DNA from: a virus
Length of the DNA stretch: 64,000 nt
Virus record (IMG/VR): IMGVR_UViG_3300027861_000011
Coordinates: 1-64,000 of that record
Direction: 5' to 3' (one strand)
Shown in pieces: positions 4,958 through 23,558 of the stretch; positions within the stretch are counted from its first letter, which is position 1, and each line of letters opens with the position of its first letter. The translations under genes and the position numbers were made by a program. A model generated the notes under the pieces. That model was given only the letters and a program-made list of their open reading frames with translations, was not told where the DNA came from and searched no databases.

Positions 4958-5927
4958 AATATTCTAACCAATATTTAACCATTTCATCTAACATTGTTTC
5001 AAACGTATATTTAGGTTTCCAATCTAATTCATTTCTAATTTTACTTGAATCTCCTTTAAGGTCTCTTAACTCTTCTGGTCTTAAGTGTTTTGAATCCATT
5101 ATAATATAATCCTCATAATTTAAATCTAAAACGTTAAATGTGTATTCACATAACTCTTTAACTGAGTGAGAGATTCCAGTAGCACAAACATAATCATCAG
5201 GTTTATCTGTTTGTAACATAAGCCACATTGCTTCTACATAATCCTTAGCATGTCCCCAGTCTCTAGTAGCGTCTAAATTACCTAATGATAATTTATCTTG
5301 TAACCCTAATTTAATTCTAACTGCGGCCTTAACAACCTTATTGGTTACGAAGTTCGTGCCTCTTCTTGGTGATTCGTGATTAAAAAGAATTCCATTCCAT
5401 ATTTTCATATTATATGAATTTCTATAATTCCTACAAATATTATAAGAGAAAACCTTTGCACATCCATAGGGACTTACAGGGTCTAACTTTGTACTTTCTC
5501 TTTGGTATCCATCGCAATCAATATTATTACCAAACATTTCTGAAGAACTAGCTTGGTATATTTTTGATTTAGGTGATACCATTCTTACGGCTTCTAAAAG
5601 GTTAAGTGTGCCAACTCCTGTAACATTAGCGGTATAAATTGGTTGGTCGAAACTAACCCTTACGTGTGATTGAGCTGCTAGATTATAAATTTCATCTGGT
5701 TGTACTTTGGTTAGAACTCTAACTAGTGATGCCATGTCTGTAAGGTCAGAATATTCTAAATTAATTGACTCATTTCTAACTAAATGTTCAATTCTGGTAG
5801 TTTGTGTTTCTGATACTGAATTTCTTTTTACAGTCCCCCATACTTCGTAATTCTTATTTAATAGGAACTCAGCAAGATATGAGCCATCTTGGCCGTTAAT
5901 ACCTGTGATTAAAGCTTTTTTACTCAT
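4932..5927 (-). CDS. gmd: GDP-mannose 4,6-dehydratase
   Basis: 'KKALITGINGQDGSYLAEFLL', 'YNLAAQSHVRVSF', 'YQASSSEMFG', 'SPYGCAK', 'NHESPRRG', 'RDWGHAKDYV'. Confidence 0.97.
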   Translation of the reverse strand: MSKKALITGINGQDGSYLAEFLLNKNYEVWGTVKRNSVSETQTTRIEHLVRNESINLEYSDLTDMASLVRVLTKVQPDEIYNLAAQSHVRVSFDQPIYTANVTGVGTLNLLEAVRMVSPKSKIYQASSSEMFGNNIDCDGYQRESTKLDPVSPYGCAKVFSYNICRNYRNSYNMKIWNGILFNHESPRRGTNFVTNKVVKAAVRIKLGLQDKLSLGNLDATRDWGHAKDYVEAMWLMLQTDKPDDYVCATGISHSVKELCEYTFNVLDLNYEDYIIMDSKHLRPEELRDLKGDSSKIRNELDWKPKYTFETMLDEMVKYWLEYYEKNYEMA

Positions 5928-5964
5928 ATGTTAAAGGTACTGCATATAAATAAAAAAATAAATA

Positions 5965-6579
5965 CTAAATCTTATAAAATAAGTCAAAATCTTTTTTAAA
6001 TGTTTTATAAATCTTATCCCTTACTTCGTCACTTAATACAGAATCATTCTTACTACTATTTAAGTGTTTTAAATCATTATTAAAACCGTACTTCTCAGCA
6101 ACAACCGAAAAGTCTTCAGCTAATGTCTCTTGTTTCATTACATGGTCAACAATTAAATTACCATCATTATCCGTTACCCATTTGTGTTGGTGGAGTGGAT
6201 TTGAACCATCCCAGAACGGATTATGTTTTTTATGTGACGGCCATTCCCAATGTGTAGGAAAATCTTTGTTCGCCCATTCTTCAATAGTATCTGGGTAGAA
6301 GTCTTTAACATCTTGACCTATATTTTTATGAGTCTTATGAAAATCATACCAAGATTTAATTAAATCATAGGGATTTCTAACACAAGCGAAACTATATCTA
6401 TTATCCCATTCATAAGTACTAATTTGATTCTTAATCGTAATTGCTTTATTATGTTGAAATGGATAGAAATTTTTAACCTTAAGTATTTTATCCCATATTG
6501 TATTTGTTCCCGTTTTAGGTATGGCAACAAATATGTAATCATTTTTCTTTATCTCTACAATATGTTTATTTAATCCCAT
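5965..6579 (-). CDS. Sulfotransferase (Sulfotransfer_2-like)
   Basis: 5'-PSB-like 'FVAIPKTGTNTI' and 3'-PB-like 'VRNPYDLIKSWY'. Confidence 0.8.
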   Translation of the reverse strand: MGLNKHIVEIKKNDYIFVAIPKTGTNTIWDKILKVKNFYPFQHNKAITIKNQISTYEWDNRYSFACVRNPYDLIKSWYDFHKTHKNIGQDVKDFYPDTIEEWANKDFPTHWEWPSHKKHNPFWDGSNPLHQHKWVTDNDGNLIVDHVMKQETLAEDFSVVAEKYGFNNDLKHLNSSKNDSVLSDEVRDKIYKTFKKDFDLFYKI

Positions 6580-7175
6580 TTAAAAACTTTTACATTTTTA
6601 CCCCTAATAGTATTTAATAAATCTTGTGTTGTTTTAACATTTTCACCATTAACAAATCTCTCATGTGTTTCCACATATAATTCATCCATGATAGATACAG
6701 TACCCTCTTTCATTAAGTGTCTTAACACATCATATTCAGCACCTTCAATATCCATCTTAACAATTACTTGGTCGTACTCACTAAATTGTTCTAAAAACTT
6801 TGAGAAGTTTATTGCTTCGATTGGGACGATATTATCAAGTCTTTTTCCATGGCCATCAATGTTCTCAATCTTATCATTTTTAATTCTACATCCAACACTA
6901 GTTAATTCACCAGGTTCTCCGCTACCACCCATACCATTGGGTGCATCATATTTCTTAGACCTAACACCCCTAGCAAATTCAAGAGTAGATTCTTCAATCC
7001 AAATCGCTTTCTGATATCCAGTAGCGTTTTTAATATTAGTATAATTTAATTCAATATCTGGGTTTGGTTCGAATGAATGTATTTCCCATTCATCATTATT
7101 AAAGAATTTAAACTTCTTGTTAAATTCTTGTAATCCTTGTCCTAGGTTTGCACCACAATCTATAAAAACTTTCAT
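6570..7175 (-). CDS. FkbM-family methyltransferase
   Basis: 'FIDCGANLGQ', 'SFEPNP', 'VKMDIEGAEYDVL', 'LYVETH'. Confidence 0.88.
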   Translation of the reverse strand: MKVFIDCGANLGQGLQEFNKKFKFFNNDEWEIHSFEPNPDIELNYTNIKNATGYQKAIWIEESTLEFARGVRSKKYDAPNGMGGSGEPGELTSVGCRIKNDKIENIDGHGKRLDNIVPIEAINFSKFLEQFSEYDQVIVKMDIEGAEYDVLRHLMKEGTVSIMDELYVETHERFVNGENVKTTQDLLNTIRGKNVKVFKWD

Positions 7176-7199
7176 TATCGTTAATTTATTAATCTTATT

Positions 7200-7829
7200 T
7201 TATAAATGACACCTTTTCAAGTGTTTTTTAACTAATTCATTAAATTCAACTTTCTCAATGAATTTAGAATCTTTAGTTTTAATATAAGCGCCAGATGAAT
7301 AATAACACATTGGGTACTTTACTGCTGGATTTCTAACTTCAGTAGTTGCTGTAATCAATTCGTAATTACAAGCCTTAGCTAGTTCACTCCAAAACTCTGT
7401 ATTATATTCCCAGAAACCATGTTTTGGCCACGGCCTATTAAGTAGTGTTTTATGTTGTTCAGAATCCATTGGAACTGCGTGACCATATACACATCCTTCA
7501 GCACCCCAGTCATGTAATTGTTTAAAGACACTATATTGGTCTATAACATGTTCACTGGTTCCGTGATTAGTTACAATATGAAACTTACCATTAAACTCAG
7601 CTCTAGGTTTGGTTAGGTCATGTCTAACCGCACCATTCTTTCCATTCATATCAACAGATGTATGAATGTAACCCAAACTTGTGTAGTAAGGTTTTGCAAC
7701 ATTAAATTTTATTTTCTCAGCGTACCATGGATTAATTACCTGGTCACCTAATTCTAACATCTCTTTACCTTCTGCATTAGCTATAACGTATTTTTGGATG
7801 AATTTTGATTGATATTCGCAAATTGCCAT
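7200..7829 (-). CDS. Class I SAM-dependent methyltransferase-like protein
   Basis: 'MLELGDQ', 'TSVDMNG', 'DLTKP', 'IVTNHGTSEHV' match motifs I/II/IV of glycan-cluster methyltransferases. Confidence 0.7.
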   Translation of the reverse strand: MAICEYQSKFIQKYVIANAEGKEMLELGDQVINPWYAEKIKFNVAKPYYTSLGYIHTSVDMNGKNGAVRHDLTKPRAEFNGKFHIVTNHGTSEHVIDQYSVFKQLHDWGAEGCVYGHAVPMDSEQHKTLLNRPWPKHGFWEYNTEFWSELAKACNYELITATTEVRNPAVKYPMCYYSSGAYIKTKDSKFIEKVEFNELVKKHLKRCHL

Positions 7830-7830
7830 A

Positions 7831-8403
7831 TTATTTTTCGTATTTAAATGTTATAAAGTCTTCCTTAAAATAATTATAAATCTTATTTAGTAAAGAGTCA
7901 TCTATATCTTTTTTGTTTGAAGGATTATTAATAGTTAATTCTTTATTACTATTCACAATCTCCTTTATTTCTTTAAACTCGTTATTTATTTCTTCTATCT
8001 TGATAACCTTATTAACTAATAAGTTATCACCATTATAAAGCCATTGTTTTTGTTTAAGTGGGTTTGTTGGCCACTTATGTGTTTTAGTCCAGTGTGTAGG
8101 AAATCCTTTATCTACCCATTCCTCGAATGTATCTGGATAAAAATCCTTAACTTCTTTAGTAATCTTAGGTGTGTGTTTATGGTGGAAATACCATGACCTA
8201 CATAACTCATAAGGATTTCTAACAATACCAAAACTAAATGTGTCATTCCACTTAGGTAATCTACCTTTCATGTTCTTAGACAACATGTGATACATCGGCT
8301 TACTTCCATTTACCTTGTCATCCCACTCGTACAAGTAATTGAATACTGAAGTGGAAGCACATCTAGGTTTGGATACGAATATTATCTTTTGATACGGTTT
8401 CAT
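7831..8403 (-). CDS. Sulfotransferase (Sulfotransfer_2-like), paralogue of 5965..6579
   Basis: 'FVSKPRCASTSV', 'VRNPYELCRSWY'; shares 'VKDFYPDTxEEWxxKxFPTHW' with 5965..6579. Confidence 0.78.
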   Translation of the reverse strand: MKPYQKIIFVSKPRCASTSVFNYLYEWDDKVNGSKPMYHMLSKNMKGRLPKWNDTFSFGIVRNPYELCRSWYFHHKHTPKITKEVKDFYPDTFEEWVDKGFPTHWTKTHKWPTNPLKQKQWLYNGDNLLVNKVIKIEEINNEFKEIKEIVNSNKELTINNPSNKKDIDDSLLNKIYNYFKEDFITFKYEK

Positions 8404-9032
8404 TACTTGTTAGACCCTTTACTATAAAATTTTGTATTATTTTTTAATATCTCATTGAACTCATCTTTATCCATAAATTCAGAATCATCTATTTTCTTAT
8501 AAATTGAATTACAAAAATGATTATCTGGCCATGTACCAATATTTGTGTTGATATCTATTACTTCATAACCACATTTTTCACATAATAATTCAAAAAAGTT
8601 TGTATTATATTCATACAATCCATGTGGGTTAGTTTTCCTATCATATAATTTTTGGTTTTGGGTGGTATCTAATGGTAATGAATTAACGTAAATACAACCA
8701 ACTTTACCCATATTGTGTAAATTTTTAAAACTCATATATTGATTTCTAATATGTTCAGTAGTACCAGCGTTAGTTACAATCTCAAATTTATTATGTAATC
8801 CATCTTCAACATCTTTAGTTAAATCAATTTTTAATGCACCGTCTTCACCATTCCAATCAATTGATGTATGGTTTAAACCTAAACTAGTGAAGTAGTTTTT
8901 ACCTAAACTTTCTTTAGCATTAAATTCCTTATTATTAATTACTTGATTACCTAACTCTAACATTTCTTTAATATTAGGGTTAATCTCTAGGGCAACAAGT
9001 ATCATATTTAAATTAAATTTATTATATCCCAT
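8403..9032 (-). CDS. Class I SAM-dependent methyltransferase-like protein, paralogue of 7200..7829
   Basis: 'MLELGNQVIN', 'TSIDWNG', 'IVTNAGTTEHI'. Confidence 0.7.
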   Translation of the reverse strand: MGYNKFNLNMILVALEINPNIKEMLELGNQVINNKEFNAKESLGKNYFTSLGLNHTSIDWNGEDGALKIDLTKDVEDGLHNKFEIVTNAGTTEHIRNQYMSFKNLHNMGKVGCIYVNSLPLDTTQNQKLYDRKTNPHGLYEYNTNFFELLCEKCGYEVIDINTNIGTWPDNHFCNSIYKKIDDSEFMDKDEFNEILKNNTKFYSKGSNK

Positions 9033-9870
9033 TAGTTATTTTTTTGTGAAAATTTAAAAAGTCATTATAAAGTCTTTGATTATTTCTCTCATGGAAGAAT
9101 AAGTGGTTGAACATAATTGGTTTATTGCACTTAACCCAAGTATTTCTTTTAAGACCGTTTATTGTGTGAAAATGACATGGTAAACCAACTTCAAATGGAA
9201 GGTTAAAACTTACGACTGGATATTCTACATAATCCATTGGTGTAATATTATTCTTAGCCATTGCTATTGCAAATATTACTTCATCCGTCATACCACCTCT
9301 AAATTGTGTTAAACAACCGTAATCTGCGTAATTATCTAAAGCGTCAAAACAATCATCTCTAAATTTTTTGTAATTCTCATGTCCCTTATTAAAACATAAT
9401 AAACCACCATGTATTGCTGGTATCTTTTTACCAACCTTTTTATCTACCTGTGCAACCTTACCCCAGTGCCATGAAGCTAAATAATCATAACCACAACAAA
9501 CAAACGGTTCATTCTTTTCATTAATATAATCCCACATCCTATTTGGATTTGCTATACAAGCTATATCAGAATCTATAGCTAACGTTTTTTCGTATGGTAT
9601 TATATCTGACATTAGGATTCTTGGTATCACACAATAAAGATTATGTGAGTTCTTTTCGTCCTTCAAATATTTCTCAGTTTCATAATCCAAAACAATTATA
9701 TCATCAAAAACCTCTTTAGTCTTTGCGTATTCGTAATCAGCTTTGTTTGTAAGTATTGCTTTGGGTCTGTCCTTATCGTAGGCATCAATCATTTCGGCAC
9801 ATAGTTGACATTCATCAACATACTTCTTACCGAATCCCATAAATATGTAACCTTCTTTTATATTTTCCAT
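9022..9870 (-). CDS. GT-A fold glycosyltransferase (GT8-like)
   Basis: 'PYEKTLAIDSD' DxD, 'HGGLLCF', 'TDEVIFAIAM'. Confidence 0.7.
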   Translation of the reverse strand: MENIKEGYIFMGFGKKYVDECQLCAEMIDAYDKDRPKAILTNKADYEYAKTKEVFDDIIVLDYETEKYLKDEKNSHNLYCVIPRILMSDIIPYEKTLAIDSDIACIANPNRMWDYINEKNEPFVCCGYDYLASWHWGKVAQVDKKVGKKIPAIHGGLLCFNKGHENYKKFRDDCFDALDNYADYGCLTQFRGGMTDEVIFAIAMAKNNITPMDYVEYPVVSFNLPFEVGLPCHFHTINGLKRNTWVKCNKPIMFNHLFFHERNNQRLYNDFLNFHKKITNGI

Positions 9871-10649
9871 AACGTTGTAACTTTGTTTCTTATTTCACCG
9901 TTAAAATCTAACCCTAATAACTGTCTATCGGTAGTACCGTGTAATATAAATACCTCTTCAAACTCTTCATCGAAAATATTTTTACCAATTAATTTACCGT
10001 CTTTAATTTTTAATGGCATGTGGTTCATAGAGCAATGATTAAATGAGCCACCCAATACCTTGTGTTTATTACTACCAACAACCAATGATAAGAATGTTTC
10101 ATCATACATCCCAGTATTAATTGTTATATTATATTTATTATGAACTTCAAATATTTGACTTAGTATCAACATATTAACTTCATTATTGTGAAACATAAAA
10201 ACTCCACCAGTATAAAATAAATTTTTATCAGTTAAATTATATTCACTAACAAATTTACCAGCGTCTGGGTGTCTGAATATTTGTTTAAACTTAGAGAAGT
10301 TTTTAACGTGAAAGTGATTAACAACCCCAAAATTATCTCCAAGCTTTTTACTTATATCTTCCAATCTATCTGAACAAACTACGGTATCACAATCTAAATA
10401 TATTCCATACTCAGTATCTATTTGTTGACACAAATAAAATTTATATTTCCAGAATAATTCTTTAGTATCAATCTTTTCATTTGTATAAATAACTTCTATG
10501 TTGTCATGTGATTTTAATTTTCCACCAACATCAAGTATTTTAACTTTATGTGGTGTTTTGATTCTACTTAAACTATTTAACGATTTTTGTAATTGTTTAT
10601 AGTAAACATCACCACCACCAACTATATAAAATATTGTATATTTCTCCAT
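9858..10649 (-). CDS. GT-A fold glycosyltransferase (GT8-like)
   Basis: 'GIYLDCDTVV' DxD, 'YTGGVFMF', 'YDETFLS'. Confidence 0.72.
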   Translation of the reverse strand: MEKYTIFYIVGGGDVYYKQLQKSLNSLSRIKTPHKVKILDVGGKLKSHDNIEVIYTNEKIDTKELFWKYKFYLCQQIDTEYGIYLDCDTVVCSDRLEDISKKLGDNFGVVNHFHVKNFSKFKQIFRHPDAGKFVSEYNLTDKNLFYTGGVFMFHNNEVNMLILSQIFEVHNKYNITINTGMYDETFLSLVVGSNKHKVLGGSFNHCSMNHMPLKIKDGKLIGKNIFDEEFEEVFILHGTTDRQLLGLDFNGEIRNKVTTLWKI

Positions 10650-11296
10650 TATTTTTTAATTACAATAATACTATTATCAACCTCATTTTTACCTGGGTTT
10701 GGTAAATCTATCATTTCGATATACTCATAATTATTTTTATTCTCTTTAACAAATTGTTTAGCCTCATTATAATGTTTGGTCTTCATGTTTATATCTTCAA
10801 TAATATAATAACCACCACTTTTTAATGAGTGAATTGAGTTATCTAAGAATATTTTATTAGCGTGGAATTCATGTAACCCATCGTCAATAATGATATCAAA
10901 ATCCTTATTAATATTACTGATTAATTCCTTGACTGCGACTCCATCTGTTTGGTCGCAAAGAAATGTTTTAATTTTATCAGTTTTAACCAAACAATCAGTA
11001 TCAATATCACAAGAATAAATATCACAATTCTTAAAGTATTTTTCCCACCCATATAGTGATGCTGCAATAGTACCATCTGGTCCCATGCCGTGGGTAAATC
11101 CAGGATTGGTACTACCGATACCAACCTCGAATATATTCTTTACATCATCTTTTATATCAACCCATAAAAAATTGTATAGTGTTGTGTAATTATGATGACC
11201 ATTACCTTTATCACTACCACATTCATTCATAATCTTACAAAGTTTCGTTGGTTTTGTGTAACTCTCCTCTTCAATAAATTTATTTATATTTTTCAT
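10649..11296 (-). CDS. Sugar O-methyltransferase-like protein (MycE/TylE-type class I SAM MT)
   Basis: 'GSDKG..HNYT..Y', 'IFEVGIG', 'SLYGWEKYF', 'DQ', 'DIIIDDGLH', 'GGYYIIEDI'. Confidence 0.78.
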   Translation of the reverse strand: MKNINKFIEEESYTKPTKLCKIMNECGSDKGNGHHNYTTLYNFLWVDIKDDVKNIFEVGIGSTNPGFTHGMGPDGTIAASLYGWEKYFKNCDIYSCDIDTDCLVKTDKIKTFLCDQTDGVAVKELISNINKDFDIIIDDGLHEFHANKIFLDNSIHSLKSGGYYIIEDINMKTKHYNEAKQFVKENKNNYEYIEMIDLPNPGKNEVDNSIIVIKK

Positions 11297-12228
11297 TACT
11301 TAATTATTTTTTCTATATTAGGTATGTAATATTTCTCAATGATTATTTCCCAATCAAAATTATCTTTTACATATTGTCTTATTTCTTTTCTACGTTCTCT
11401 AGATACAACTCTATTCCTTTCAATAATACTTTTAACGTATTCAATATCATTCATCTTGTTCTTTGGGATAACATCGATGAACGGTAATGATGTATCTAAG
11501 TTTGCTGTGGAGTATTCAGATATAACAATACCTAACCCAGCAGACATCGCTTCCATACATACAAGTGGATGAGCTTCACCATCACTAAGAAGAACCAGAT
11601 TACTATAGTTTGTTAATTCCTTATATAATGTATCCTTAGTCCATTCTCCAAGATAATTATTTTTATTAAATTTATTATCGACAATATTACCAGCAAAGTA
11701 TAAGTTTTCAATATTATGATATTTATATTGACCCTTTCTATCATCAACCTTAGCTAGATATATGGACTTATCTTCTGGTGTTTCCGTAAAATCAAATAAA
11801 TCGTATCTAACTCCATTTGGAACCACTAACACTTTATCTTCAGCTTTACCATGATTAACATAAGTATCCTTTATTCCTTGAGACAATGCAAATATGTGTG
11901 CATTAACACCTATAAATTGTCTAAATAAATTAACATAACCACCATGTCTATTTGGTTGCTCTAAATAAGCATAGTGTGATGTTAGAATAACTGGTTGTTT
12001 AATTTTATTAGTTAAACCAACCCAATTATCATATTGTATGTGCACAACATCTGGGTTGAATTGATTTATTTCGTTTAGTATTGTATTAGCTTCTCTAATG
12101 TTTATTATTTTAACTTCATGACCCAACTTAGTTAATACCACTTTATAATCCCATATAAGACTTTCCACAGCACCCCATCCTTTTGGTGGTATTGCCATTA
12201 ATCCAGGTCCTATTATCGCAATTTTCAT
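11296..12228 (-). CDS. Glycosyltransferase, GT4 family
   Basis: 'MKIAIIGPGLMAIPPKGWGAVE', 'VVPNGV', 'EAHPLVCMEAMSAGLGIV'. Confidence 0.88.
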   Translation of the reverse strand: MKIAIIGPGLMAIPPKGWGAVESLIWDYKVVLTKLGHEVKIINIREANTILNEINQFNPDVVHIQYDNWVGLTNKIKQPVILTSHYAYLEQPNRHGGYVNLFRQFIGVNAHIFALSQGIKDTYVNHGKAEDKVLVVPNGVRYDLFDFTETPEDKSIYLAKVDDRKGQYKYHNIENLYFAGNIVDNKFNKNNYLGEWTKDTLYKELTNYSNLVLLSDGEAHPLVCMEAMSAGLGIVISEYSTANLDTSLPFIDVIPKNKMNDIEYVKSIIERNRVVSRERRKEIRQYVKDNFDWEIIIEKYYIPNIEKIIK

Positions 12229-12229
12229 A

Positions 12230-12937
12230 TTAACTTCTTAGGTTTTTGTGTGTTCCGTGTTTATTCTTATCTAATTGAATCATTTTCATATTACTCATGT
12301 CACCACCCCAAACTTCTGGGTAAATATATGAATAAGGTAATACTAACGGATTTTTATCCTTGTAATACCAATTAATTTCTGACTCATCATGCCATAATGG
12401 TATTATATTATTTTGTGTGTCAATGTCAATATTAACAGCTAACAATTTTGACATTTCTAACCATTCTTTAGTTCTACCACCATTAAAACATCCTTGGACA
12501 TAAACACTACCCTCACCTTTTGGGATGTAGCAACTAGATTTCGTATTTCTATCATATGGGAAAACTAGATTACCTTTACCGAAAAATCCAGGATGATGAA
12601 CGCCCATGAGCCAATTATTATCTTCATGTGGAATTATTTCTTTCCCAATAGGGTTTAAAGCTTTCATATTGGCATTGAAGAAGAAAAGATAATCTTCATT
12701 TTTTAATTGTTTACTTATAGAGTTAAACATATGAAATCTCATCATTGTGTCATATGGCCAACCTAATTTTTCTTGTTGGATTCTTACGACATTATCATAT
12801 GGTGGTATCGTCCCATCACTAAAAACATAATAAGTTTTTTCGTAATCAGTCAGAAAGTTTTTTTCTAATGACTTATAAAGGGTTTCAAAAAATATCTCGT
12901 ATTTCCCAGTACATATTGTTAAAATTCCTATTTTCAT
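12230..12937 (-). CDS. GT6-family glycosyltransferase (ABO/alpha-1,3-Gal(NAc) transferase-like, bacterial NXN type)
   Basis: 'MKIGILTICTGKY', 'LGWPYDTMMRF', 'YLFFFNAN' (NXN in place of DXD), 'HHPGF', 'YDR', 'QGCFNGG', 'WHDESEIN', 'YIYPE', 'LDKNK'. Confidence 0.92.
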   Translation of the reverse strand: MKIGILTICTGKYEIFFETLYKSLEKNFLTDYEKTYYVFSDGTIPPYDNVVRIQQEKLGWPYDTMMRFHMFNSISKQLKNEDYLFFFNANMKALNPIGKEIIPHEDNNWLMGVHHPGFFGKGNLVFPYDRNTKSSCYIPKGEGSVYVQGCFNGGRTKEWLEMSKLLAVNIDIDTQNNIIPLWHDESEINWYYKDKNPLVLPYSYIYPEVWGGDMSNMKMIQLDKNKHGTHKNLRS

Positions 12938-13473
12938 TTTACTGCTTCTATATTTAAACTCATTAATTTTCCATTATCCTTGTCCATATGCGGTATATAT
13001 GATTGAGAAAAGTCATCTAATTCAGAATGTTCAGTACATCTCCAATCATATCTTAACACATCTTTAAAACCAACCTTAATTAAGTCGTTCTTGAGTGATT
13101 GGAAATCCCATGTGATGTAATGATAATTTTCTGTGTAAGTTTGACCACCGTAAAGTAGTCCTATAAGTTTGGTTACGTCACCAGTTTCGTTGTAATATTC
13201 TACAACCTTACCAAAGTCTGGTACAGATATTCTAATAGTACCACCATCTTTAAGTAATTCGAACCATCTTTCTAATATAGCCATATATTCGTGTCTTCCG
13301 AAGTGTTCTAGAGTATGACATACGTAGATTAAATCTACACTATTATTTTCAATTGATTCTAATTTACCAATATCATCGATTAAATCTGGGTTAACTTCTT
13401 CTCGTATGTCTATATTGATAAAACCATCTATATGTTTATTACCACTTCCTAAGTGTAATTTTATTTTTTCCAT
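12934..13473 (-). CDS. Methyltransferase (Methyltransf_11-like)
   Basis: 'KLHLGSG', 'INIDI', 'CHTLEHF', 'LLKDGGTIRISVPD'. Confidence 0.85.
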   Translation of the reverse strand: MEKIKLHLGSGNKHIDGFINIDIREEVNPDLIDDIGKLESIENNSVDLIYVCHTLEHFGRHEYMAILERWFELLKDGGTIRISVPDFGKVVEYYNETGDVTKLIGLLYGGQTYTENYHYITWDFQSLKNDLIKVGFKDVLRYDWRCTEHSELDDFSQSYIPHMDKDNGKLMSLNIEAVK

Positions 13474-13479
13474 AAAATA

Positions 13480-14277
13480 TCAAATTTGTGTCCAACCCTC
13501 ACAATATAAATCGTTAATGTGAAGGTTGGTTTGTTTGCCCCCGAACCATGTTTTCGGAGCTATTACTTTCTTATTGTCATTTTGGTTTAACCAGGCACCC
13601 CACCAACTAAAACTTGAGTTTGCTATAATGTTATTATCGCACATACTCATCAAGTATAAATCAAGGATGTCGATGTTATTGGTAATGTAATAAATATTAG
13701 CATTTTCAATAACCAAATTTTCTTTACACCACTTAATGTCATCCGAAAATACTAAAATATTAACTTCTGTAAGGTCATTTCCGTATATTTCATTTAATGC
13801 GTTCTTATAATAATCCAAACTAACTAGTGGGTGATAATCTTGCTTATTTATATAATCTCCACGTCTTATATGAAGTGAACATGAATTAACTAGAACATCA
13901 TAATACTTACTTTTTAATACTTTTTTAAAGTCTTCAGATAATCTGAACGTTTCTAATATTAAGTCTCTATGGTCTTTAAAATACTTTTCGGATTGAAAAT
14001 ATCCCTTAAGACCATAATTAAGTGTTGTGTTTAATTCTATTTTATTATAACCAAAACCTGGTTCTTGATAATTAACCTCTATCTTTCCTGTTGGATTATT
14101 ACTTAATTTATTTTCCATGAACTCATTGAAATCAGAATGAGTATAACTACACTTCCAATGATTAAAATAATAGTTTAACCCATTATCCATTCCAGTAGCA
14201 ATGGTTGTAGCTATTTGGAACATTTGATTCCCAAGTCTACCCATGGAACCTAATCCGTTATAAGTTACACTACCCAT
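13480..14277 (-). CDS. Alpha-1,2-fucosyltransferase, GT11 family
   Basis: 'GRLGNQMFQ', 'GYFQSEKYF', 'SLHIRRGDY', 'FSDDIKWC', 'IIANSSFSWWGAWL'. Confidence 0.93.
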   Translation of the reverse strand: MGSVTYNGLGSMGRLGNQMFQIATTIATGMDNGLNYYFNHWKCSYTHSDFNEFMENKLSNNPTGKIEVNYQEPGFGYNKIELNTTLNYGLKGYFQSEKYFKDHRDLILETFRLSEDFKKVLKSKYYDVLVNSCSLHIRRGDYINKQDYHPLVSLDYYKNALNEIYGNDLTEVNILVFSDDIKWCKENLVIENANIYYITNNIDILDLYLMSMCDNNIIANSSFSWWGAWLNQNDNKKVIAPKTWFGGKQTNLHINDLYCEGWTQI

Positions 14278-15011
14278 TCTAATTTTTTATACGGTTCCAT
14301 ATTTCTTATCTTCACAGCAATATCAGTAACCAAAGTCATGTCAACCTTATGGTCATTAAGTGGATTCTGTTCATTGTAAATGTAATTAACTTCATTCATA
14401 AATCTATAATGTTCTTGTCCCGACATTTCAAGCATCGGATACATGAATGCTAAATCACCAGTTACTTTCCAAAATATTCCATTCTCGTCCTTCAAGTCAT
14501 CTTGCTTAATAGCTCTCCATAAGAAAGCTCTCCACGTTCTTATATGTGAAGCTGTAAATCTAGATGTTCTAAGATTGTCAGTAATGGCTTGTTCAGAAGC
14601 AAAACCAGGTTGACCATTAGAGTATCTAAAACTACCATTGGCAATCCATACATTATCATCAGAGTAAACTTCTGCAATTCTAGAAAGTGTTTTAGAATCT
14701 GGTAACCAATCATCACCATCAACTTCAACAATAACTTCATTATCATCTATATTGTCATTCCCTCTAATAACTTGGTCGTAATTCCCAGGTTGGTAGAACT
14801 TATCCTTATTTTCTATTAGGATGAACCTTTCATCACCCTTTATCATCGATTTTACTTTCTCTACTGACCCGTCAGTACTGATATCATCAGTTATGTAACA
14901 TTTAAAATCTCTAAATTTTTGCCCCATTAAAGAGCCAATACATCTCTCAACATATTCTTCCGCATTATATAGTGTTGTAACTATTATCATAATTCTAAAA
15001 CTTTTAACCAT
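14265..15011 (-). CDS. Glycosyltransferase, GT2 family
   Basis: 'IIVTTLYNAEEYVERCIGSL', 'TDDISTD', 'EVDGDDWL'. Start probably a few codons downstream of the track start. Confidence 0.85.
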   Translation of the reverse strand: MVKSFRIMIIVTTLYNAEEYVERCIGSLMGQKFRDFKCYITDDISTDGSVEKVKSMIKGDERFILIENKDKFYQPGNYDQVIRGNDNIDDNEVIVEVDGDDWLPDSKTLSRIAEVYSDDNVWIANGSFRYSNGQPGFASEQAITDNLRTSRFTASHIRTWRAFLWRAIKQDDLKDENGIFWKVTGDLAFMYPMLEMSGQEHYRFMNEVNYIYNEQNPLNDHKVDMTLVTDIAVKIRNMEPYKKLEWVV

Positions 15012-15781
15012 TTAGATATAACTTCTTCATTAGTAATATCTATAGTATCATTATTTGTTGCATGATTACCTTTAAATTCAGTACCAGTACTATAACACTC
15101 ATCCTTTACTAATGAAGCTACTTCACTTTTTGAGGATAAGTAAGCAGTACCTATCATGTCATACATTTCTTGTTTATTCGAAATAAACCCATATTCTGAA
15201 ACGTTGTCATACTTGTCTATAAGTGGTTTAACGAACTCATTATAATAATTCTGGTTAGATACCGCTCCGAAGAGTAAAACCTTCTTAAAACCATCATTAA
15301 CTGCTCTCTCGATTGATATGTGTGTTTGTTTATTAATATCGAATGAACCAATTATCCCAGCAGTATTTTTTGCTTCTTCAGATTTGGGTTTATTTTCAAA
15401 TAAAACCTTTACGTTAGGTATTATCTCATAATTACCGAAATAATTCTTGTGATATTTTCTTTGTTTATCATTAAGGAAAACAACTGTATCCCAGAATGGT
15501 CTTACATTACCCACTTCAAATATATCCTTCTCGTGACAAGCTAAAATTATCTTCTTAGGTTTTGGAATTCCACTAGGTAACTCAATAAAATGAGCAATAA
15601 TTATATCGTCTTGATTTATAGTGAAATCCTTATGCATTGCACCATTACATTTATCTAAATGCCATTCATGAGGGCCATAAAGTATTGAGTCGTAACCAGC
15701 TTCCTTTAACTCTTTCATTAGGTTAATAAAAGCAAATGTAGAACCACCTTTATTGCTCCATCCAGTTATTATCTTTATCAT
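14987..15781 (-). CDS. Glycosyltransferase, GT-B fold-like
   Basis: 'GWSNKGGSTFAFINLMKELKEAGYD', 'SEYGF', 'SKSEVASLVKDEC'. Confidence 0.6.
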   Translation of the reverse strand: MIKIITGWSNKGGSTFAFINLMKELKEAGYDSILYGPHEWHLDKCNGAMHKDFTINQDDIIIAHFIELPSGIPKPKKIILACHEKDIFEVGNVRPFWDTVVFLNDKQRKYHKNYFGNYEIIPNVKVLFENKPKSEEAKNTAGIIGSFDINKQTHISIERAVNDGFKKVLLFGAVSNQNYYNEFVKPLIDKYDNVSEYGFISNKQEMYDMIGTAYLSSKSEVASLVKDECYSTGTEFKGNHATNNDTIDITNEEVISKWLKVLEL

Positions 15782-16869
15782 GCTAACGTAATTTGGTATT
15801 TACCGATTATCTCTTCAATTGTTGATTCATTTTTAAGTGTTACTGTTGGTAACTCTGGATAAAGTTTAGCCAAATGTGTAGCCATTTCTGTATTATCGGC
15901 ATGTATTATATCAAAATCAGCTTCACTTATTCTATATAACTTATTTGGTTCAGATGTTACCGTACCATTAGGGCTATTTAACCCCCATTTACCATCACCT
16001 ACTTTATAACCTGGTGGTTGGTTTAATGGGGCAAACTTACCACCTTTAGCCATAAGCCTTTTAAAATTGGGTTCATCATCAGTTAATACTGGTGAAACCA
16101 CAGTAATGTTATGGTTCATACTTTTTAACTTACCAACCAAATCTAAAGATTCTGAAATATTTAGACTACCAATTAATATCTTAAACCTTTCATTACCCTT
16201 GAAAACTCTATCTATTTTAATTGGTAAATTAGTTTTATACTTCTCAGCAAATTCTTTTCTATTATCTTCCCATTCTTGGTTAGTTTCACCTATCGATTGG
16301 TGATTGACTCTTACGTTAGTATGAACACCAACCTTAACACCAGCTAAGTAATTTCTGAAACAAAAATCAACATCATAGAAATGAAAACCTTTAACGTCTA
16401 AATTAAATTGTTCTTTAATTCTACCCCTATGTACAGAGAATAAAACACCATCAACTATTATAGCTTCCTCAACATCATTCCCTAAATCATCACTGTATTT
16501 AGAAAGCCATGTTTTACCCTCGTGAGTATGTGCAACTCTACCATACATCTTCTTCTTATCATCCCACCATCTACCCGTTTCACTCATATATTTAGTTCCA
16601 GCAACACCAAGAATACCGTACTCTGGGTTATTATCAAATAATTTACTTATCTTATTGGCTATTTGTTTAGTTTCGATAGTAATATCATCGTGACAAAACA
16701 CTATAATGTCATTCTTAGCTTCATCTAAAGCCTTTTGATAGAACTTAGTAAGACCCTCTCCTTTATTTATATATTCAATAATTTCTACCTTTGGATTTCC
16801 ACACGCTTTCTTTAAGTGTTTAATGTGGTCTGGGTTATGTTCTCTTGTACAATATACTATACTAATCAT
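15778..16869 (-). CDS. GT2-like glycosyltransferase with C-terminal degenerate GT-B-like segment
   Basis: 'MISIVYCT', 'IVFCHDD', 'IVDGVLFSV', 'GFHFYDVDFC'; C-terminal 'KILIG...NHNITVVS'. Confidence 0.78.
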   Translation of the reverse strand: MISIVYCTREHNPDHIKHLKKACGNPKVEIIEYINKGEGLTKFYQKALDEAKNDIIVFCHDDITIETKQIANKISKLFDNNPEYGILGVAGTKYMSETGRWWDDKKKMYGRVAHTHEGKTWLSKYSDDLGNDVEEAIIVDGVLFSVHRGRIKEQFNLDVKGFHFYDVDFCFRNYLAGVKVGVHTNVRVNHQSIGETNQEWEDNRKEFAEKYKTNLPIKIDRVFKGNERFKILIGSLNISESLDLVGKLKSMNHNITVVSPVLTDDEPNFKRLMAKGGKFAPLNQPPGYKVGDGKWGLNSPNGTVTSEPNKLYRISEADFDIIHADNTEMATHLAKLYPELPTVTLKNESTIEEIIGKYQITLA

Positions 16870-17549
16870 TTTATAAAACTTTTATATTTCTCATTATATA
16901 TTTCTACGGCTTTATCGTAGAACGCTATTTCTACCTCAAGTAGTTCTTTTAATTTTTCTTTATCCTCATTACTAATATTTTTTTTAGTCTTTGTAGTGTT
17001 AGTTATTCTATATTGTGGTTTCCATTTATTAATATCACAACATAAGTCAATAAACTCATCATACTTATTAGTAAAACCAAAAAGGAATTTATCATCCTTA
17101 ATATTTTTTAAAGCAATATCTAATTTTAATTCATATGGCGTATCTTCTGGAAGTCCACAAACATGATGTAATTGATAATATTTCTGACTTCCATTATCGT
17201 GAAACCAATCTATTATATTAACCTTATCATTAATCCAACCTCTATCATTTGCATATTTATAAGCTGATATAGTTCTTGAAATTGGTTCCCTAAACATTGT
17301 AATATATTGATAATTCTTAGTACCTAAATATGGGTGTAATCCATATTGAAAATGTTCAGAAAATAAATTAAAATGTTTGAATACTTCCATACCATTAGGT
17401 TCTGACTCTAAAAACTTTTGGGTATCTCTAACGTCAGTTAAGTACCATAACTTACTATAACCAAAATAAGCTTTAGGTATATTCGTTTGTAAAAACGACC
17501 TAAAGCTTGTTCCAGCAGTCTTACCTATATGTACAAAAATATATTTCAT
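16866..17549 (-). CDS. Sulfotransferase (Sulfotransfer_2-like)
   Basis: 'FVHIGKTAGTSF', 'FREPISRTISAY'. Confidence 0.85.
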   Translation of the reverse strand: MKYIFVHIGKTAGTSFRSFLQTNIPKAYFGYSKLWYLTDVRDTQKFLESEPNGMEVFKHFNLFSEHFQYGLHPYLGTKNYQYITMFREPISRTISAYKYANDRGWINDKVNIIDWFHDNGSQKYYQLHHVCGLPEDTPYELKLDIALKNIKDDKFLFGFTNKYDEFIDLCCDINKWKPQYRITNTTKTKKNISNEDKEKLKELLEVEIAFYDKAVEIYNEKYKSFIK

Positions 17550-18298
17550 TAAAATTCGTATTTGTAATTATAAAGTTCGATGTCCTTACCCCAAATTTGT
17601 TCTACTATCTCTCTAGTCGCTGGATTGTAGAAAAACTTATAATCTGGTATGATAGTATCATCACCTTCTCTTGTTATAATATCTTTAGCTCTCTTATCAA
17701 AAGCAATGTCACCAAAGTCTTTTATCTTCTTGGTGTAGTGGAATGATTTACCGATATCACCTTCAACACTTAAGGTTGTACCATGAGCTTTATTAATCTT
17801 ATCAATTTCATTCTTAATATTTTCAATCTTTACAATGTGGTTCCAATTATTCTCAATATCAATTGAGTCATGTTGCACCTCTTGATGGAACTCAGTTTTA
17901 CCTTTACCTACATCAATTCTTGAAACATAATTCAAGTAATCAATAAAGCTAATATTATTAGGTTCTTCTTCACCAGTCATTTGCTTTATTTGAGCAATTA
18001 CTGGATGATTCTCAGCGGTGTAAGCGTCTCTCATATAGTGAACGTAACTACTTACTGCTCTCCTATATGGGTCACGTACAACTTTGAACTTAATCATATC
18101 CTTTTTATGTAGGTAATTAGTTAATACAGGATTCTTAGGTTCATACACACGTTGTCTGTATTGGTGTATGAATGGATGAAACTCAATAGCATCCTCCAAT
18201 AGACCTAATTCGTGGAAGAACATCTTACATGCCGTTGTACACGCACACTTAGGAGTCCAACCCATCATAATATTTTTATCCTTGTTTACTAGTATCAT
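17549..18298 (-). CDS. Sulfotransferase (Sulfotransfer_2-like)
   Basis: 'WTPKCACTTA', 'VVRDPYRRAVSSY', 'SFIDYL', 'KIENI'. Confidence 0.85.
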   Translation of the reverse strand: MILVNKDKNIMMGWTPKCACTTACKMFFHELGLLEDAIEFHPFIHQYRQRVYEPKNPVLTNYLHKKDMIKFKVVRDPYRRAVSSYVHYMRDAYTAENHPVIAQIKQMTGEEEPNNISFIDYLNYVSRIDVGKGKTEFHQEVQHDSIDIENNWNHIVKIENIKNEIDKINKAHGTTLSVEGDIGKSFHYTKKIKDFGDIAFDKRAKDIITREGDDTIIPDYKFFYNPATREIVEQIWGKDIELYNYKYEF

Positions 18299-18434
18299 TT
18301 TTTAAAATGTGAATTAAACCTTTAATGTTATAATGTTTACCACTAACTAATGGTAACCTAAAAGTTAAAACACCCCTTTCATCTAAATCAGTTAAGTCAT
18401 TTATTAGATTTTTAATTAACTTTTCCTTTTTCAT
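18276..18434 (-). CDS. Possible 52-aa small ORF
   Basis: Not in track. MKKEKLIKNLINDLTDLDERGVLTFRLPLVSGKHYNIKGLIHILKNDTSKQG fills the intergenic gap and overlaps the next start. Confidence 0.4.
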   Translation of the reverse strand: MKKEKLIKNLINDLTDLDERGVLTFRLPLVSGKHYNIKGLIHILKNDTSKQG

Positions 18435-18461
18435 CCTTATTATCAATTTATCTAATATACA

Positions 18462-19511
18462 TTATTTATTAAATCTTTCATATGCGTTGTTACTAATCTT
18501 AATAAACTCTACTTTATTAACAAACTCTTCTAGATTTATAGAGTTGGAGTAGCTCATTGCTGAACGCAAGTAAGATTCAAAGTTTTCAACCCACCCTTCG
18601 ATAGTATATTCTACTTTCCTAAATCTTACAATACCTTCAGATGTTTTAAGTATTGTATTACCCCATTTCTTTTGAACTTCTTTAGTACTCATACCCCTGA
18701 ACTTCTTGTATACATTCATACCGATTTTATAGGCTTTTTCAGCACCCCCCTGGGTTATTGGCATACTTTTAAGAACATAGTTACTACCACAAGACTCAAG
18801 ACATTTATTTAATATACTACCAAGCATAACATAATCAGCACCTAAAGCCAAAGCCTTAATTATATCCGAAAAACTTTGCATGCCACCATCAGCTACAATT
18901 TTAGCTGGTTCATCTATTATACATGATGCGTAATAACATTCCCTAATCAAAGAGGCCATTGGGAAACCTACACCCGTTTGTTGGGTTGTTAGGCAACCTC
19001 CACCATTACCAATTCCAACTCTAATATAATCAGCACCAGCATCTGATAACACCTTATATGTTTCAGAATTAGCCACATTACCAACCATTAAAATCATCGT
19101 ATCACCCCATAATGATTTAGCTATTTTAATGATATCAACCATTTCTTTTAAATGACCATTGGCTGTATCGATTAATACAAATAATTTATCTTCAAGAACT
19201 ATATCAAAGTCAACATTATTTATGAATTTTTTTTTAAATTCATTTAGTGAGTATGATGCGAAAATAGAATTACTTACCCCACCTTCACCTCTAGGTAAAC
19301 ATATATTTATTCCTTGTTCTTTAAATAATTCATAATTGTGCCTATTCACAACTGTATCCATTGGAGCTGTAAATAATGGTAACCTACCATTACTATCAAG
19401 TATGTCTATTTTGGACCTAGAATTTATATCACCAGACATACTTGGTTTTATTAAAATATCATTAAAATCTAATTTAATGTCACTATGTGCTACACAATCT
19501 TTCATCATCAT
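18462..19511 (-). CDS. IMPDH/GMP-reductase family oxidoreductase (no CBS domains; GuaC-like N-terminus)
   Basis: 'KLDFNDILIKP', 'APMDTV', 'IDTANGH', 'VGNVA', catalytic loop 'VGIGNGGGCLTT', 'ADGG', 'GADYVMLG', 'FRGMST', 'SEG', 'LRSAMSY'. Confidence 0.9.
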   Translation of the reverse strand: MMMKDCVAHSDIKLDFNDILIKPSMSGDINSRSKIDILDSNGRLPLFTAPMDTVVNRHNYELFKEQGINICLPRGEGGVSNSIFASYSLNEFKKKFINNVDFDIVLEDKLFVLIDTANGHLKEMVDIIKIAKSLWGDTMILMVGNVANSETYKVLSDAGADYIRVGIGNGGGCLTTQQTGVGFPMASLIRECYYASCIIDEPAKIVADGGMQSFSDIIKALALGADYVMLGSILNKCLESCGSNYVLKSMPITQGGAEKAYKIGMNVYKKFRGMSTKEVQKKWGNTILKTSEGIVRFRKVEYTIEGWVENFESYLRSAMSYSNSINLEEFVNKVEFIKISNNAYERFNK

Positions 19512-20098
19512 TTTATACCAGTACTACCAAGTCCACCTTCATTTCTTTCCGTATTATCATTTAATTCAAATACCTTATTAAATTTAATCATTTTCTTTGA
19601 TGTAACATTAGCTATAACTGCTTGAGCTATTCTATCCCCAATCTCTATATTAAAATTAGTAGTACCTTGATTAATAAGTATTATCATTATTTCACCTCTA
19701 TAATCAGAATCGATTGTGCCAGGTGAATTTAATACGGTAATACCATACTTTGCAGCTAAACCACTTCTGGGTCTAATCTGCATTTCTAAATTAGAATGTA
19801 ACTCAAAATAAAGTCCTGTTCTAATTGTATTAAATTCACCTGGACCTAATGTAATATCCTCATTAGCTCTTAAATCAAAACCAGCCGAACCATCAGTGGC
19901 ATACTCTGGGTCTTGGTTATTAGATTTATTAACAAAATTAACTGGAAATTTAAACATGTCTAAATTACTATCATTATTATTATCGGCTGTGTGACTTACA
20001 TTACTATATTTACTATGAAATTCTTCCATTGTATAAGAATTTGATTTATCCATTGCTGATAATAATTTATTTTTTATTTCTTCAATACTATATTCCAT
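19508..20098 (-). CDS. dut: Trimeric dUTPase with N-terminal extension
   Basis: Five motifs: 'AGFDL', 'RSGLA', 'GTIDSDYRGE', 'RIAQ', 'RNEGGLGSTG'. Confidence 0.95.
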   Translation of the reverse strand: MEYSIEEIKNKLLSAMDKSNSYTMEEFHSKYSNVSHTADNNNDSNLDMFKFPVNFVNKSNNQDPEYATDGSAGFDLRANEDITLGPGEFNTIRTGLYFELHSNLEMQIRPRSGLAAKYGITVLNSPGTIDSDYRGEIMIILINQGTTNFNIEIGDRIAQAVIANVTSKKMIKFNKVFELNDNTERNEGGLGSTGIK

Positions 20099-20101
20099 AA
20101 C

Positions 20102-20656
20102 TTATTTTTCTTCAACCATCGCAATCATATTCGCAATTCTTAATAAGGCACCTAATTTCTCACCCTTACTAGTCATTGGTCTTTGTGCGAATTCACTATT
20201 ATAATTATATATTGCAAATACTTCATCTTCAGTTAAGTCAACCCCAGACTTTAGTGCGTAATATACTGAACGTTCAGAAACACTCATACTTAAAGCAGTG
20301 TTATTCCAAGTATAATTCTCACCTAAATTGTTTTTTCTCCAGTCATTAGTTTGTTCGATAAACATATTACATTTACCTATTTGGTGAAGTAACGACACTC
20401 TAATGATTGAGGCATTATCAACTTGCTTTGCTTCAGGCAAACTAGCGTTAACTGAAATAGCATGTTTAGTGGTATTGATTATGTGTTCAATTAATCCACC
20501 TTCATAGGCACCATATAACTCTTTTTTAGAAGTACATGGGGCACCTATGAAACCATCACCTAATAACTTAAGTAATTCATCATTAATAACACCGTGTTTA
20601 ATACCAGTCTCGTTAAATTTAGTTGCGTTATTTAAAACTTTTTCTTTTGTAAGCAT
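20102..20656 (-). CDS. HD-domain-like protein with degenerate HD motif
   Basis: 'AYEGGLIEH' first His; 'LLHQIGK' where LLHDLGK is expected; 'IANMIA' where AD is expected. Confidence 0.65.
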   Translation of the reverse strand: MLTKEKVLNNATKFNETGIKHGVINDELLKLLGDGFIGAPCTSKKELYGAYEGGLIEHIINTTKHAISVNASLPEAKQVDNASIIRVSLLHQIGKCNMFIEQTNDWRKNNLGENYTWNNTALSMSVSERSVYYALKSGVDLTEDEVFAIYNYNSEFAQRPMTSKGEKLGALLRIANMIAMVEEK

Positions 20657-20677
20657 AATAATATTTATTTGGTTAAT

Positions 20678-21067: not shown

Positions 21068-21078
21068 ATTTACGCTTT

Positions 21079-22365: not shown

Positions 22366-22398
22366 TTTCTTTTTAATTAATTTTATTATTTATACTCA

Positions 22399-22427
22399 AG
22401 TATAATGAATATATTAATTAATGTAAA
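22399..22427 (-). promoter_or_regulatory. Putative sigma70-like promoter TTTACA-N17-TATACT
   Basis: Close-to-consensus hexamers with 17-nt spacer upstream of 22365; could drive the glycan/nucleotide operon. Confidence 0.55.
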
Positions 22428-22431
22428 TAAT

Positions 22432-22464: not shown

Positions 22465-22483
22465 TCTGAAAATAAATTATTAA

Positions 22484-23544: not shown

Positions 23545-23558
23545 TAATTATTTTATTT

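Follow-up and report, generated by a model that had tools for sequence, protein, structure and literature searches.

In Escherichia coli O86, four glycosyltransferases (GTs), WbnH (GT4), WbnJ (GT2), WbnK (GT11), and WbnI (GT6), build a B-antigen-like pentasaccharide on undecaprenyl pyrophosphate (Und-PP) (PMC4506291), with WbnI serving as an alpha1,3-galactosyltransferase that requires an H-type acceptor (PMC4506291, PMC12723683). A metal-independent relative, BoGT6a of Bacteroides ovatus (PDB 4AYJ, 4AYL, and 4CJ8), is a blood-group-A synthase. The closest known system to the locus described here is that of Prochlorococcus phage P-SSM2, whose cluster holds gmd (PSSM2_257), an fcl-like gene (PSSM2_258), a GT11 (PSSM2_265), a methyltransferase (PSSM2_267), and a GT6 (PSSM2_268); similar clusters are found in Synechococcus phages DSL-LC03, B3/B23, and S-CAM9. 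Here we analyze the first 64 kb (“the window”) of the IMG/VR record IMGVR_UViG_3300027861_000011 (193,838 bp in total; CheckV completeness, 55%), in which genes for a GT11, a small methyltransferase, and a GT6 stand together within a sugar-building island. The best explanation for this arrangement is that the three genes, co-oriented and tightly packed with their neighbors, form part of a single assembly line for a glycan, whose enzymes are soluble and cytoplasmic. Judging from the sequences, we see about an even chance that GT11 and GT6 build the trisaccharide Hex-alpha1,3-(Fuc-alpha1,2)-Gal, in which the hexose would most likely be galactose.

P-SSM2 and the window both have, in one co-oriented phage cluster, gmd, GT11, additional GT2/GT4 genes, and a methyltransferase that immediately precedes GT6. 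Unlike P-SSM2, the window record lacks fcl, has five sulfotransferases, and is not that of a T4-like cyanophage, and its methyltransferase is not homologous to the one in P-SSM2. The two GT6 enzymes also differ: that of P-SSM2 has a DVD motif and the donor loop AGGF and falls below the cut-off of the NCBIfam family NF041524, whereas the window GT6 has an NXN motif and the loop QGCF and lies above it (272.7 bits versus 250). In DSL-LC03, an annotated alpha-1,2-fucosyltransferase abuts the GT6. With E. coli O86 the window shares, at the family level only, the adjacency of the same four families, in the order GT2-GT11-(methyltransferase)-GT6-GT4, but no equivalents of WecA, Wzx, or Wzy were recognized in the island. 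The earlier note on this DNA, made from the sequence alone, had mentioned a GT6 in P-SSM2, which we could confirm, and had held that only a complete pathway acting on a virion would lack precedent; the pairing of GT11 with GT6 in a phage does have one, as P-SSM2 carries both, along with gmd, a methyltransferase, and an fcl-like gene. Because P-SSM2 and DSL-LC03 already carry GT11 and GT6, the phage gene set for an ABH-type glycan is not new.

The GT6 enzyme and its acceptor pocket

The window GT6 is a minimal catalytic domain of 235 amino acids (aa) with neither tail nor fusion, and it aligns over its full length with BoGT6a (PDB 4AYJ) at 50% identity (E 5e-62; phmmer against 72 GT6 sequences from PDB); its identity to the P-SSM2 GT6 (36%) is well below that. 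Its signature motifs are FFFNANM (N88-A-N90) and YVQGCFNGG. The first contains the NXN motif of the bacterial metal-independent clade (clade 3, PMC3516806), and the minimal build matches clade 1 (phage/Parachlamydia, PMC3516806), whose DXD metal-binding motif is absent. It is probably a retaining enzyme of the metal-independent type.

With residue roles taken as named for BoGT6a (PMC3516806, PMC3961637), the catalytic and UDP-binding residues are all retained, namely, N95/N97 as N88/N90, D191/E192 as D184/E185, K231 as K224, and R243 as R234, and the six residues of the window enzyme are invariant in our GT6 alignment (A1). The stretch W182-H183-D184-E185 aligns with W189-H190-D191-E192 of BoGT6a, so that the catalytic Glu, equivalent to E303 of the human enzymes GTA/GTB and E192 of BoGT6a, is kept along with the preceding Asp and the His and Trp residues. 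Most of the residues lining the acceptor pocket are likewise shared with BoGT6a (H122 as H115, G124 as G117, F125 as F118, Y153 as Y146, W189 as W182, W218 as W210, and I228 as I220). Three of these, H122, G124, and I228, differ in alpha3GalT, the enzyme that rejects fucosylated acceptors (PMC3516806). At these 2'-fucose-excluding positions, occupied by Gln, Trp, and Trp in alpha3GalT, the window GT6 has His, Gly, and Ile, like BoGT6a and GTA. Hence, on this alignment, the pocket keeps room for a 2'-fucose (H115, G117, and I220), and most of the 2'-fucosyl-galactose pocket is predicted to be intact. The differences from BoGT6a, apart from the enzyme being phage encoded, lie in the donor loop, in one acceptor residue (taken up below), and at the C terminus: the window GT6 ends one residue past R234 and has no basic-hydrophobic-basic membrane-binding domain. 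Most bacterial GT6 homologs have an extra C-terminal tail of 19 to 47 residues.

Linkage of GT11 and GT6

The GT11 protein displays the family motif HxRRxD as HIRRGD (residues 136 to 141), along with FSDD (177) and a C-terminal NSSFSWWGAWL (220), and by these features is an intact member of the alpha-1,2-fucosyltransferase family. It is 34% identical to the P-SSM2 GT11 (E 8e-44) and is the only GT11 across the 194-kb record; compared by sequence with solved structures, it returned chance matches only. These motifs, the NAN motif of GT6, the single intervening methyltransferase, and the presence of gmd in the island, all of which the earlier note had pointed out, were reproduced by our sequence and family searches.

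A scan of bacterial genomes, limited to one genome per species, yielded 80 GT6 loci from Bacteroidota, Alphaproteobacteria, Firmicutes, the candidate phyla radiation (CPR), and others. A GT11 homolog lies within 8 kb of GT6, the extent of the fetched flanks, in 64 of the 80, and within 100 bp in 31 of them. The pairing is far above chance, and it makes an alpha1,3-hexose-capped Fuc-alpha1,2-Gal the best reading of the product. It also fits the biochemistry of the family, in which BoGT6a, PaGT6, BgtA, and WbnI all require Fuc-alpha1,2-Gal (PMC3516806, PMC12723683). Within the phage clade described in the next section, the expected covariation of G117 with GT11 is absent (p 1.0). A pocket triad, G117/F118/W210, which the window GT6 carries, does track the presence of GT11 in the locus (8/10 versus 5/28; Fisher p 0.0009); as the signature was chosen post hoc and the comparison, made among related sequences, carries no correction for phylogeny, we regard the association as a hint only.

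A tail-less NXN clade of phage GT6 enzymes

A search of a 5.8-billion-protein collection gave 341 matches to the window GT6. Among the 120 listed, from which features were read, most are 233 to 237 aa long, and a large majority carry NXN and QGC. Scans of viral and metagenome contigs, the latter with alignment A1, added 89 further loci to those from bacterial genomes. Two cyanophage DXD sequences served as the root of a tree in which the window GT6 groups with a 56-member clade (support 0.96). Its members come only from viral and metagenome contigs; eight of the nine IMG/VR hits are among them, but no sequence from a bacterial genome. All 79 of the bacterial-genome sequences, with the remaining metagenome sequences, form the sister clade (support 0.92), and the phage clade is not nested within it. 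Members of the 56-sequence clade are characterized by NXN, by QGC[F/L] in nearly all, and by a C terminus that runs 1 to 8 residues past the conserved Arg. The bacterial GT6s are at most 49% identical to the window enzyme, and their loops vary (AGGL, MGGF, MGGL, QGCL, and others).

The published scheme divides the family into three: a phage/Parachlamydia DXD group, a bacterial NXN group whose members carry a membrane tail, and the enzymes of vertebrates (PMC3516806). The GenBank phages that we inspected are of the DXD type, namely, P-SSM2 (DVD), DSL-LC03 (DAD), a 635-kb uncultured phage (LR745206; DSD), and a marine single-cell virus (AG-345-E02; DVD), and the sole NAN sequence among them is from an unverified 7.7-kb fecal scaffold. 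By its sequence features, the 56-member clade fits neither the DXD phage group nor the tailed bacterial NXN group. As a separate observation, a related phage contig (L088; IMGVR_UViG_3300043466_003461) has at 5096-7330 a 744-aa frame that includes a GT6-like domain (E 1e-22). As a normal GT6 of the 235-aa type follows immediately downstream, this frame is a second, fused GT6 copy.

The donor loop

Mutagenesis has established that four loop residues set the choice between GalNAc and Gal in GT6 enzymes (PMC3516806). At these positions BoGT6a has AGGL (from A155), GTA has LGGF, GTB has MGAF, alpha3GT has HAAI, and the window GT6 has QGCF (Q148-G-C-F151). The loop, given in the earlier note as QGCFNGG, is indeed bulkier than that of BoGT6a and of the GalNAc-type enzymes in general. 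Gal-using enzymes pair a large residue at the first position with one other than glycine at the third, and QGCF follows this pattern, which would make GalNAc an unlikely donor and galactose, with a blood-group-B-like product, the most likely one. The alignment to BoGT6a and human GTA/GTB that the earlier note had proposed thus finds the catalytic residues retained and a loop pattern that appears nearer to that of the Gal users. A blastn search with the genes for the window GT6 and for the Psychromonas and Helicobacter GT6s against all complete E. coli genomes returned nothing usable; the WbnI protein carries the accessions AAV80756 and Q5JBG6 (cited in PMC4202792).

The proposed pathway and the points against it

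Family membership, intact catalytic residues, a retained fucose-accommodating pocket, and the genomic linkage of GT11 and GT6 are what we observe. We propose a pathway in which GT11 would first add L-fucose in alpha-1,2 linkage to a beta-galactoside supplied by an upstream transferase; the GT2 that directly precedes GT11 is our candidate for the maker of this beta-Gal acceptor. GT6 would next add an alpha-1,3-linked hexose to the same galactose to give Hex-alpha1,3-(Fuc-alpha1,2)-Gal, the hexose most likely being galactose, as in a blood-group-B-like structure, rather than GalNAc. Finally, GT4, the methyltransferases, and the sulfotransferases would extend or tailor the product. Given such extension or tailoring, the B-like trisaccharide may be internal or masked rather than a free epitope. 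We infer the linkages, the donor sugars, the order of the steps, and the carrier alike. Of the structure Gal-alpha1,3-(Fuc-alpha1,2)-Gal put forward in the earlier note, the part that stands is the pair of intact family members, the NXN motif, and the room for a 2'-fucose; the galactose donor is deduced from the loop.

Several observations weigh against this pathway. In the acceptor pocket, T134 of BoGT6a, which hydrogen bonds the acceptor galactose, is replaced by P127. In the phage clade, GT6-GT4 stands without GT11 in over half of the loci whose flanks were long enough to judge (up to 10 kb), so GT6 does not always depend on a phage GT11. For the QGC-loop subfamily, sequence does not separate Gal, Glc, or another donor. 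NF041524 is named “family 6 glucosyltransferase,” a name for which we found no source paper and on which we base no claim of a glucose donor. Our searches identified neither an acceptor nor an initiating enzyme or a carrier. With respect to the fucose itself, fcl, which encodes GDP-L-fucose synthase, was sought across the 194-kb record (55% complete) and not found, so GDP-fucose would depend on an enzyme of the host or on a gene in the 45% of the genome that the record lacks; by itself, gmd could supply other 6-deoxyhexoses. The complete pathway envisaged in the earlier note is thus not what the record contains, as fcl, an initiating transferase, and an exporter were all missing from what we found.

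The GDP-fucose pathway is incomplete in the record as it stands. The gmd product scores 407.5 bits against TIGR01472, slightly below the equivalog cut-off of 415 bits, and gmd is the sole Epimerase-family gene of the record. In the P-SSM2 cluster, gmd and the fcl-like gene were identified at 539 and 462 bits, respectively. Since the island of the window runs into the start of a record that covers roughly half of the genome, the lack of fcl may be no more than a gap in the data. Other IMG/VR phage records with the GT6 module (G001, G002, and G003) have a second Epimerase-family gene beside gmd, and its best NCBIfam match in G001 and G003 is GDP-L-fucose synthase (E 4e-68 to 5e-75). Between gmd and phoH the window has a 323-aa open reading frame (ORF; 3986-4957, minus strand) that overlaps gmd by 26 nt; we considered it as a hidden fcl and rejected it, as searches of Pfam, NCBIfam, and PHROG placed it in no family and its composition does not resemble that of an enzyme. 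APS kinase, for the supply of the sulfate donor 3'-phosphoadenosine-5'-phosphosulfate (PAPS), was also looked for in the 194-kb record and not found, so PAPS for the sulfotransferases would come from the host. The record G001 (IMGVR_UViG_3300027770_000025; 348,582 bp), which is rated complete, carries GT6-GT4, gmd, and an fcl-like gene, yet it contains no polymerase closely related to the window DNA polymerase; the glycan module appears to move between distinct large-phage lineages.

Carrier and alternative explanations

Family searches recognized no initiating phosphoglycosyltransferase, flippase (Wzx), polymerase (Wzy), or ABC exporter among the island proteins, and no transmembrane segments were predicted across the island ORFs. 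Together with the tail-less GT6, this fits a soluble acceptor and equally allows host lipid-linked intermediates. We lean slightly, and tentatively, toward a soluble cytoplasmic acceptor such as virion proteins, while host lipid-linked glycans are a carrier that we also hold quite possible. Soluble virus-encoded glycosyltransferases and sugar-nucleotide enzymes, with no export machinery, glycosylate the capsid and tail of mycobacteriophages and the capsid of chlorovirus PBCV-1, and chlorovirus glycans contain fucose and methylated sugars. To our knowledge, sulfotransferases are not part of those systems. Their enzyme families also differ from those of the window, whose phage is uncultured.

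The most serious alternative, which we regard as possible though short of an even chance, is that the island remodels a polysaccharide of the host envelope (O-antigen, capsule, or S-layer glycan) by way of host lipid-linked intermediates and host flippases. This is the standing interpretation of the homologous clusters of P-SSM2, S-SCSM1, and S-SCSM2R, described as “LPS / cell-wall synthesis and modification” (LPS, lipopolysaccharide; PMC9602691, PMC12801897). In addition, the island has the very families, GT4, GT2, GT11, and GT6, from which E. coli O86 draws its enzymes for O-unit assembly on Und-PP (PMC4506291), and the GT4 of the window is a weak profile match to WbnH (E 0.006). However, beyond the missing initiating, flipping, polymerizing, exporting, and membrane proteins, GT6 enzymes of the phage clade are without the basic-hydrophobic-basic tail by which their bacterial counterparts are believed to be kept at the membrane (PMC3516806), and the interpretation itself is, for every phage, a proposal.

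With respect to a virion acceptor, the tetrapeptide [ST]-G-x-T was counted 195 times across the genome, where shuffling the composition of each protein predicts 57 (a 3.4-fold excess). The occurrences are concentrated in about a dozen large fiber-like proteins (encoded at 24992-30177, 49473-54638, and 60555-62357 of the window and 114880-125192 of the genome), with 54 in a single 1721-aa ORF. As fiber-fold repeats would yield the same signal, the motif may reflect structural repetition and not a site of modification, and its excess does not decide the target. A far-reaching possibility, which we consider improbable, is that this GT6 lineage works together with GT11, GT4, the methyltransferases, and the sulfotransferases in the host cytoplasm, where virion proteins themselves would receive a B-type fucoglycan that is both sulfated and methylated.

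It is also conceivable, though rather unlikely, that the logic of GT11 followed by GT6 is unchanged but that GT6 donates GalNAc, giving an A-like product, or glucose. The characterized prokaryotic GT6s with an inspectable sequence are all GalNAc transferases (BoGT6a and, by report, PaGT6; PMC3516806), and the Cys at the third loop position, being larger than the Ala of GTB, could reshape the pocket near O3/O4. GalNAc users, however, carry Gly at that position and a small or flexible first residue (AGGL and LGGF), which QGCF does not. As for glucose, D184, the equivalent of the D191 that binds the axial O4' of Gal/GalNAc, is retained, and the name of NF041524, having no paper that we could find behind it, adds nothing.

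Still less probable in our estimate is that GT11 and GT6 serve different acceptors and adjoin each other in this phage only incidentally. The many GT6-GT4 loci of the clade that lack GT11, the failure of G117 alone to associate with GT11, and the Pro in place of T134 would all accord with this. It has to be set against the strong linkage in bacteria, the tendency of the pocket triad to accompany GT11, and the direct adjacency of the two genes in the closest relatives of the locus (labeled L095, L096, L105, L106, L108, and L110 in our set).

Finally, hypermodification of phage DNA, in general a live option (PMC13326640) and here taken to mean an oligosaccharide placed on a hydroxylated or hydroxymethylated pyrimidine, recalls the GT-B enzymes that build mono- to trisaccharides on phage DNA (PMC13326640), the proposed DNA glucosyltransferase of Rhizobium phage RL38J1 (PMC13326640), which shares the best structural match of the window GT4 (7FG9/8X3Q), and the dUTPase and IMPDH/GMP-reductase-like genes that flank the island, but it is very improbable, given that no thymidylate-synthase-family hydroxymethylase was found in the 194-kb record, that GT11 and GT6 are known solely on beta-galactoside glycans with no DNA precedent, that five sulfotransferases and several methyltransferases are unprecedented on DNA glycans, and that the 7FG9 match reflects the generic GT4 fold at 18% identity.

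The phage and the layout of the island

The DNA (G+C content, about 31%) encodes a tail fiber that bears an endosialidase-chaperone domain and proteins resembling tail terminators, along with a family-B DNA polymerase, a helicase, PhoH, and dUTPase. T4 gp23 and psbA were looked for in the record, and neither was found; a search for DNA-level relatives among isolates likewise found none. It is a large uncultured phage distant from every isolate, since its polymerase is only 24 to 26% identical to that of any isolated phage, the nearest being Salinibacter phages.

The island spans 22 kb of co-oriented minus-strand genes, reaching from near 22.4 kb to the record start, and is flanked by the dUTPase and IMPDH/GMP-reductase-like genes. 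Gene junctions are overlaps or gaps of a few bases: the methyltransferase and GT6 overlap by 4 nt, GT6 and GT4 are 1 nt apart, and GT2 and GT11 overlap by 13 nt. Besides the central trio, from which gmd lies 7 kb downstream, the island holds four GT2-type genes, the GT4, a GT-B-like gene, four or five Sulfotransfer_2 genes, and several methyltransferases (Table 1). Weak additional Sulfotransfer_2 matches occur outside the four main genes.

Table 1. Features of the sugar-building island in the window (first 64 kb of the record)
Feature	Position	Strand	Basis
GT11, alpha-1,2-fucosyltransferase type, 265 aa	13480-14277	minus	Pfam PF01531 Glyco_transf_11, E 1.4e-29
Small class-I S-adenosylmethionine (SAM) methyltransferase, 179 aa	12934-13473	minus	Weak Pfam Methyltransf_11/12/25/23, E 1e-4 to 9e-4
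GT6, predicted ABO-type retaining glycosyltransferase, 235 aa	12230-12937	minus	PF03414 Glyco_transf_6, E 2.2e-27, residues 2-226
GT4-type GT-B glycosyltransferase, 310 aa	11296-12228	minus	Pfam Glyco_transf_4, E 4e-11
GT2 glycosyltransferase directly upstream of GT11	14265-15011	minus	PF00535, E 1.5e-15
Two glycosyltransferase-like genes (264 aa, GT-B-like; 363 aa, GT2_5)	14987-16869	minus	PF13712, E 7.7e-29 for 15778-16869
Two Sulfotransfer_2 genes, head of island	16866-17549, 17549-18298	minus	PF03567, E 3.5e-7 and 4.4e-12
gmd, GDP-mannose 4,6-dehydratase	4932-5927	minus	PF16363, E 1.2e-123; TIGR01472, E 4.6e-122
Tailoring block: two Sulfotransfer_2 genes, FkbM methyltransferase, methyltransferase-like gene, four unassigned ORFs	5965-11296	minus	Family searches
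Sulfotransfer_2 genes within the tailoring block	5965-6579, 7831-8403	minus	

A promoter and terminator scan of 9000-25200 gave counts equal to those of shuffles and is uninformative about the limits of the operon. Within the GT6 coding region there is, on the minus strand at 12402-12429, a perfect sigma-70 consensus (TTGACA, 16 nt, TATAAT; 12/12), placed about 170 nt upstream of the GT4 start. It could act as an internal promoter, serving GT4 and the tailoring genes that follow it, or, as promoter-like counts overall equal those of shuffles, it may be due to chance.

The genes around GT6

The most frequent partner of GT6 in the clade is the GT4, of which a homolog (E 1e-54 to 1e-169) occurs in the GT6 locus in 34 of the 56 members, directly adjoining it in those inspected; none of the 80 bacterial loci contains one. 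An AlphaFold2 model of the protein (pLDDT, 91) has the GT-B fold, with Tll1591, a cyanobacterial alpha-1,2-glucosyltransferase, as the best Foldseek match; WbnH ranks only 46th by Foldseek. On the modeled fold, the protein is a retaining GT4, the fold being silent on its role. DSL-LC03 carries a copy that is 53% identical. At the DNA level, a segment of this gene (11438-12228) is the only part of 11000-16000 with similarity (64 to 70%) to isolated cyanophages, namely, Synechococcus phages DSL-LC02/03, B3, B23, S-CAM9, and S-PRM1, which suggests that GT4 is widespread among aquatic phages of unrelated lineages.

The remaining order is largely kept in related loci. In L096 it is as in the window: GT2_5, GT-B, GT2, GT11, GT6, GT4, orf9858, and orf9022; in L095 it is GT11-GT6-GT4. 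The GT2 upstream of GT11 is equally placed in L096 (E 1e-136), the 264-aa GT-B-like and 363-aa GT2_5 genes are both syntenic in L096 and L087, and homologs of orf9858, orf9022, and orf8403 are syntenic in L096, L100, and L104. Among the close phage-clade relatives listed, a methyltransferase between GT11 and GT6 is confined to the window and L100 (E 5e-107); comparison of these loci marks it as an optional insert.

Implications

What is new here is modest: a clade of NXN, tail-less, QGCF-type GT6 enzymes, its frequent GT4 partner, and unusually many sulfotransferases. The island represents one more well-delimited case of a large aquatic phage carrying a whole fucoglycan assembly line and not a new kind of system. 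Were a sulfated, methylated fucoglycan placed on the virion, a reading that we hold improbable, the resulting coat would mimic or resist the recognition of marine sulfated fucans. For the family, the clade adds a fourth form, NXN, tail-less, and with a distinct donor loop, to the three-group scheme that has been used to argue for movement of ABO-type enzymes between kingdoms. By its sequence, it also offers a small, soluble, probably metal-independent enzyme with that donor loop, one that should be easily expressed.

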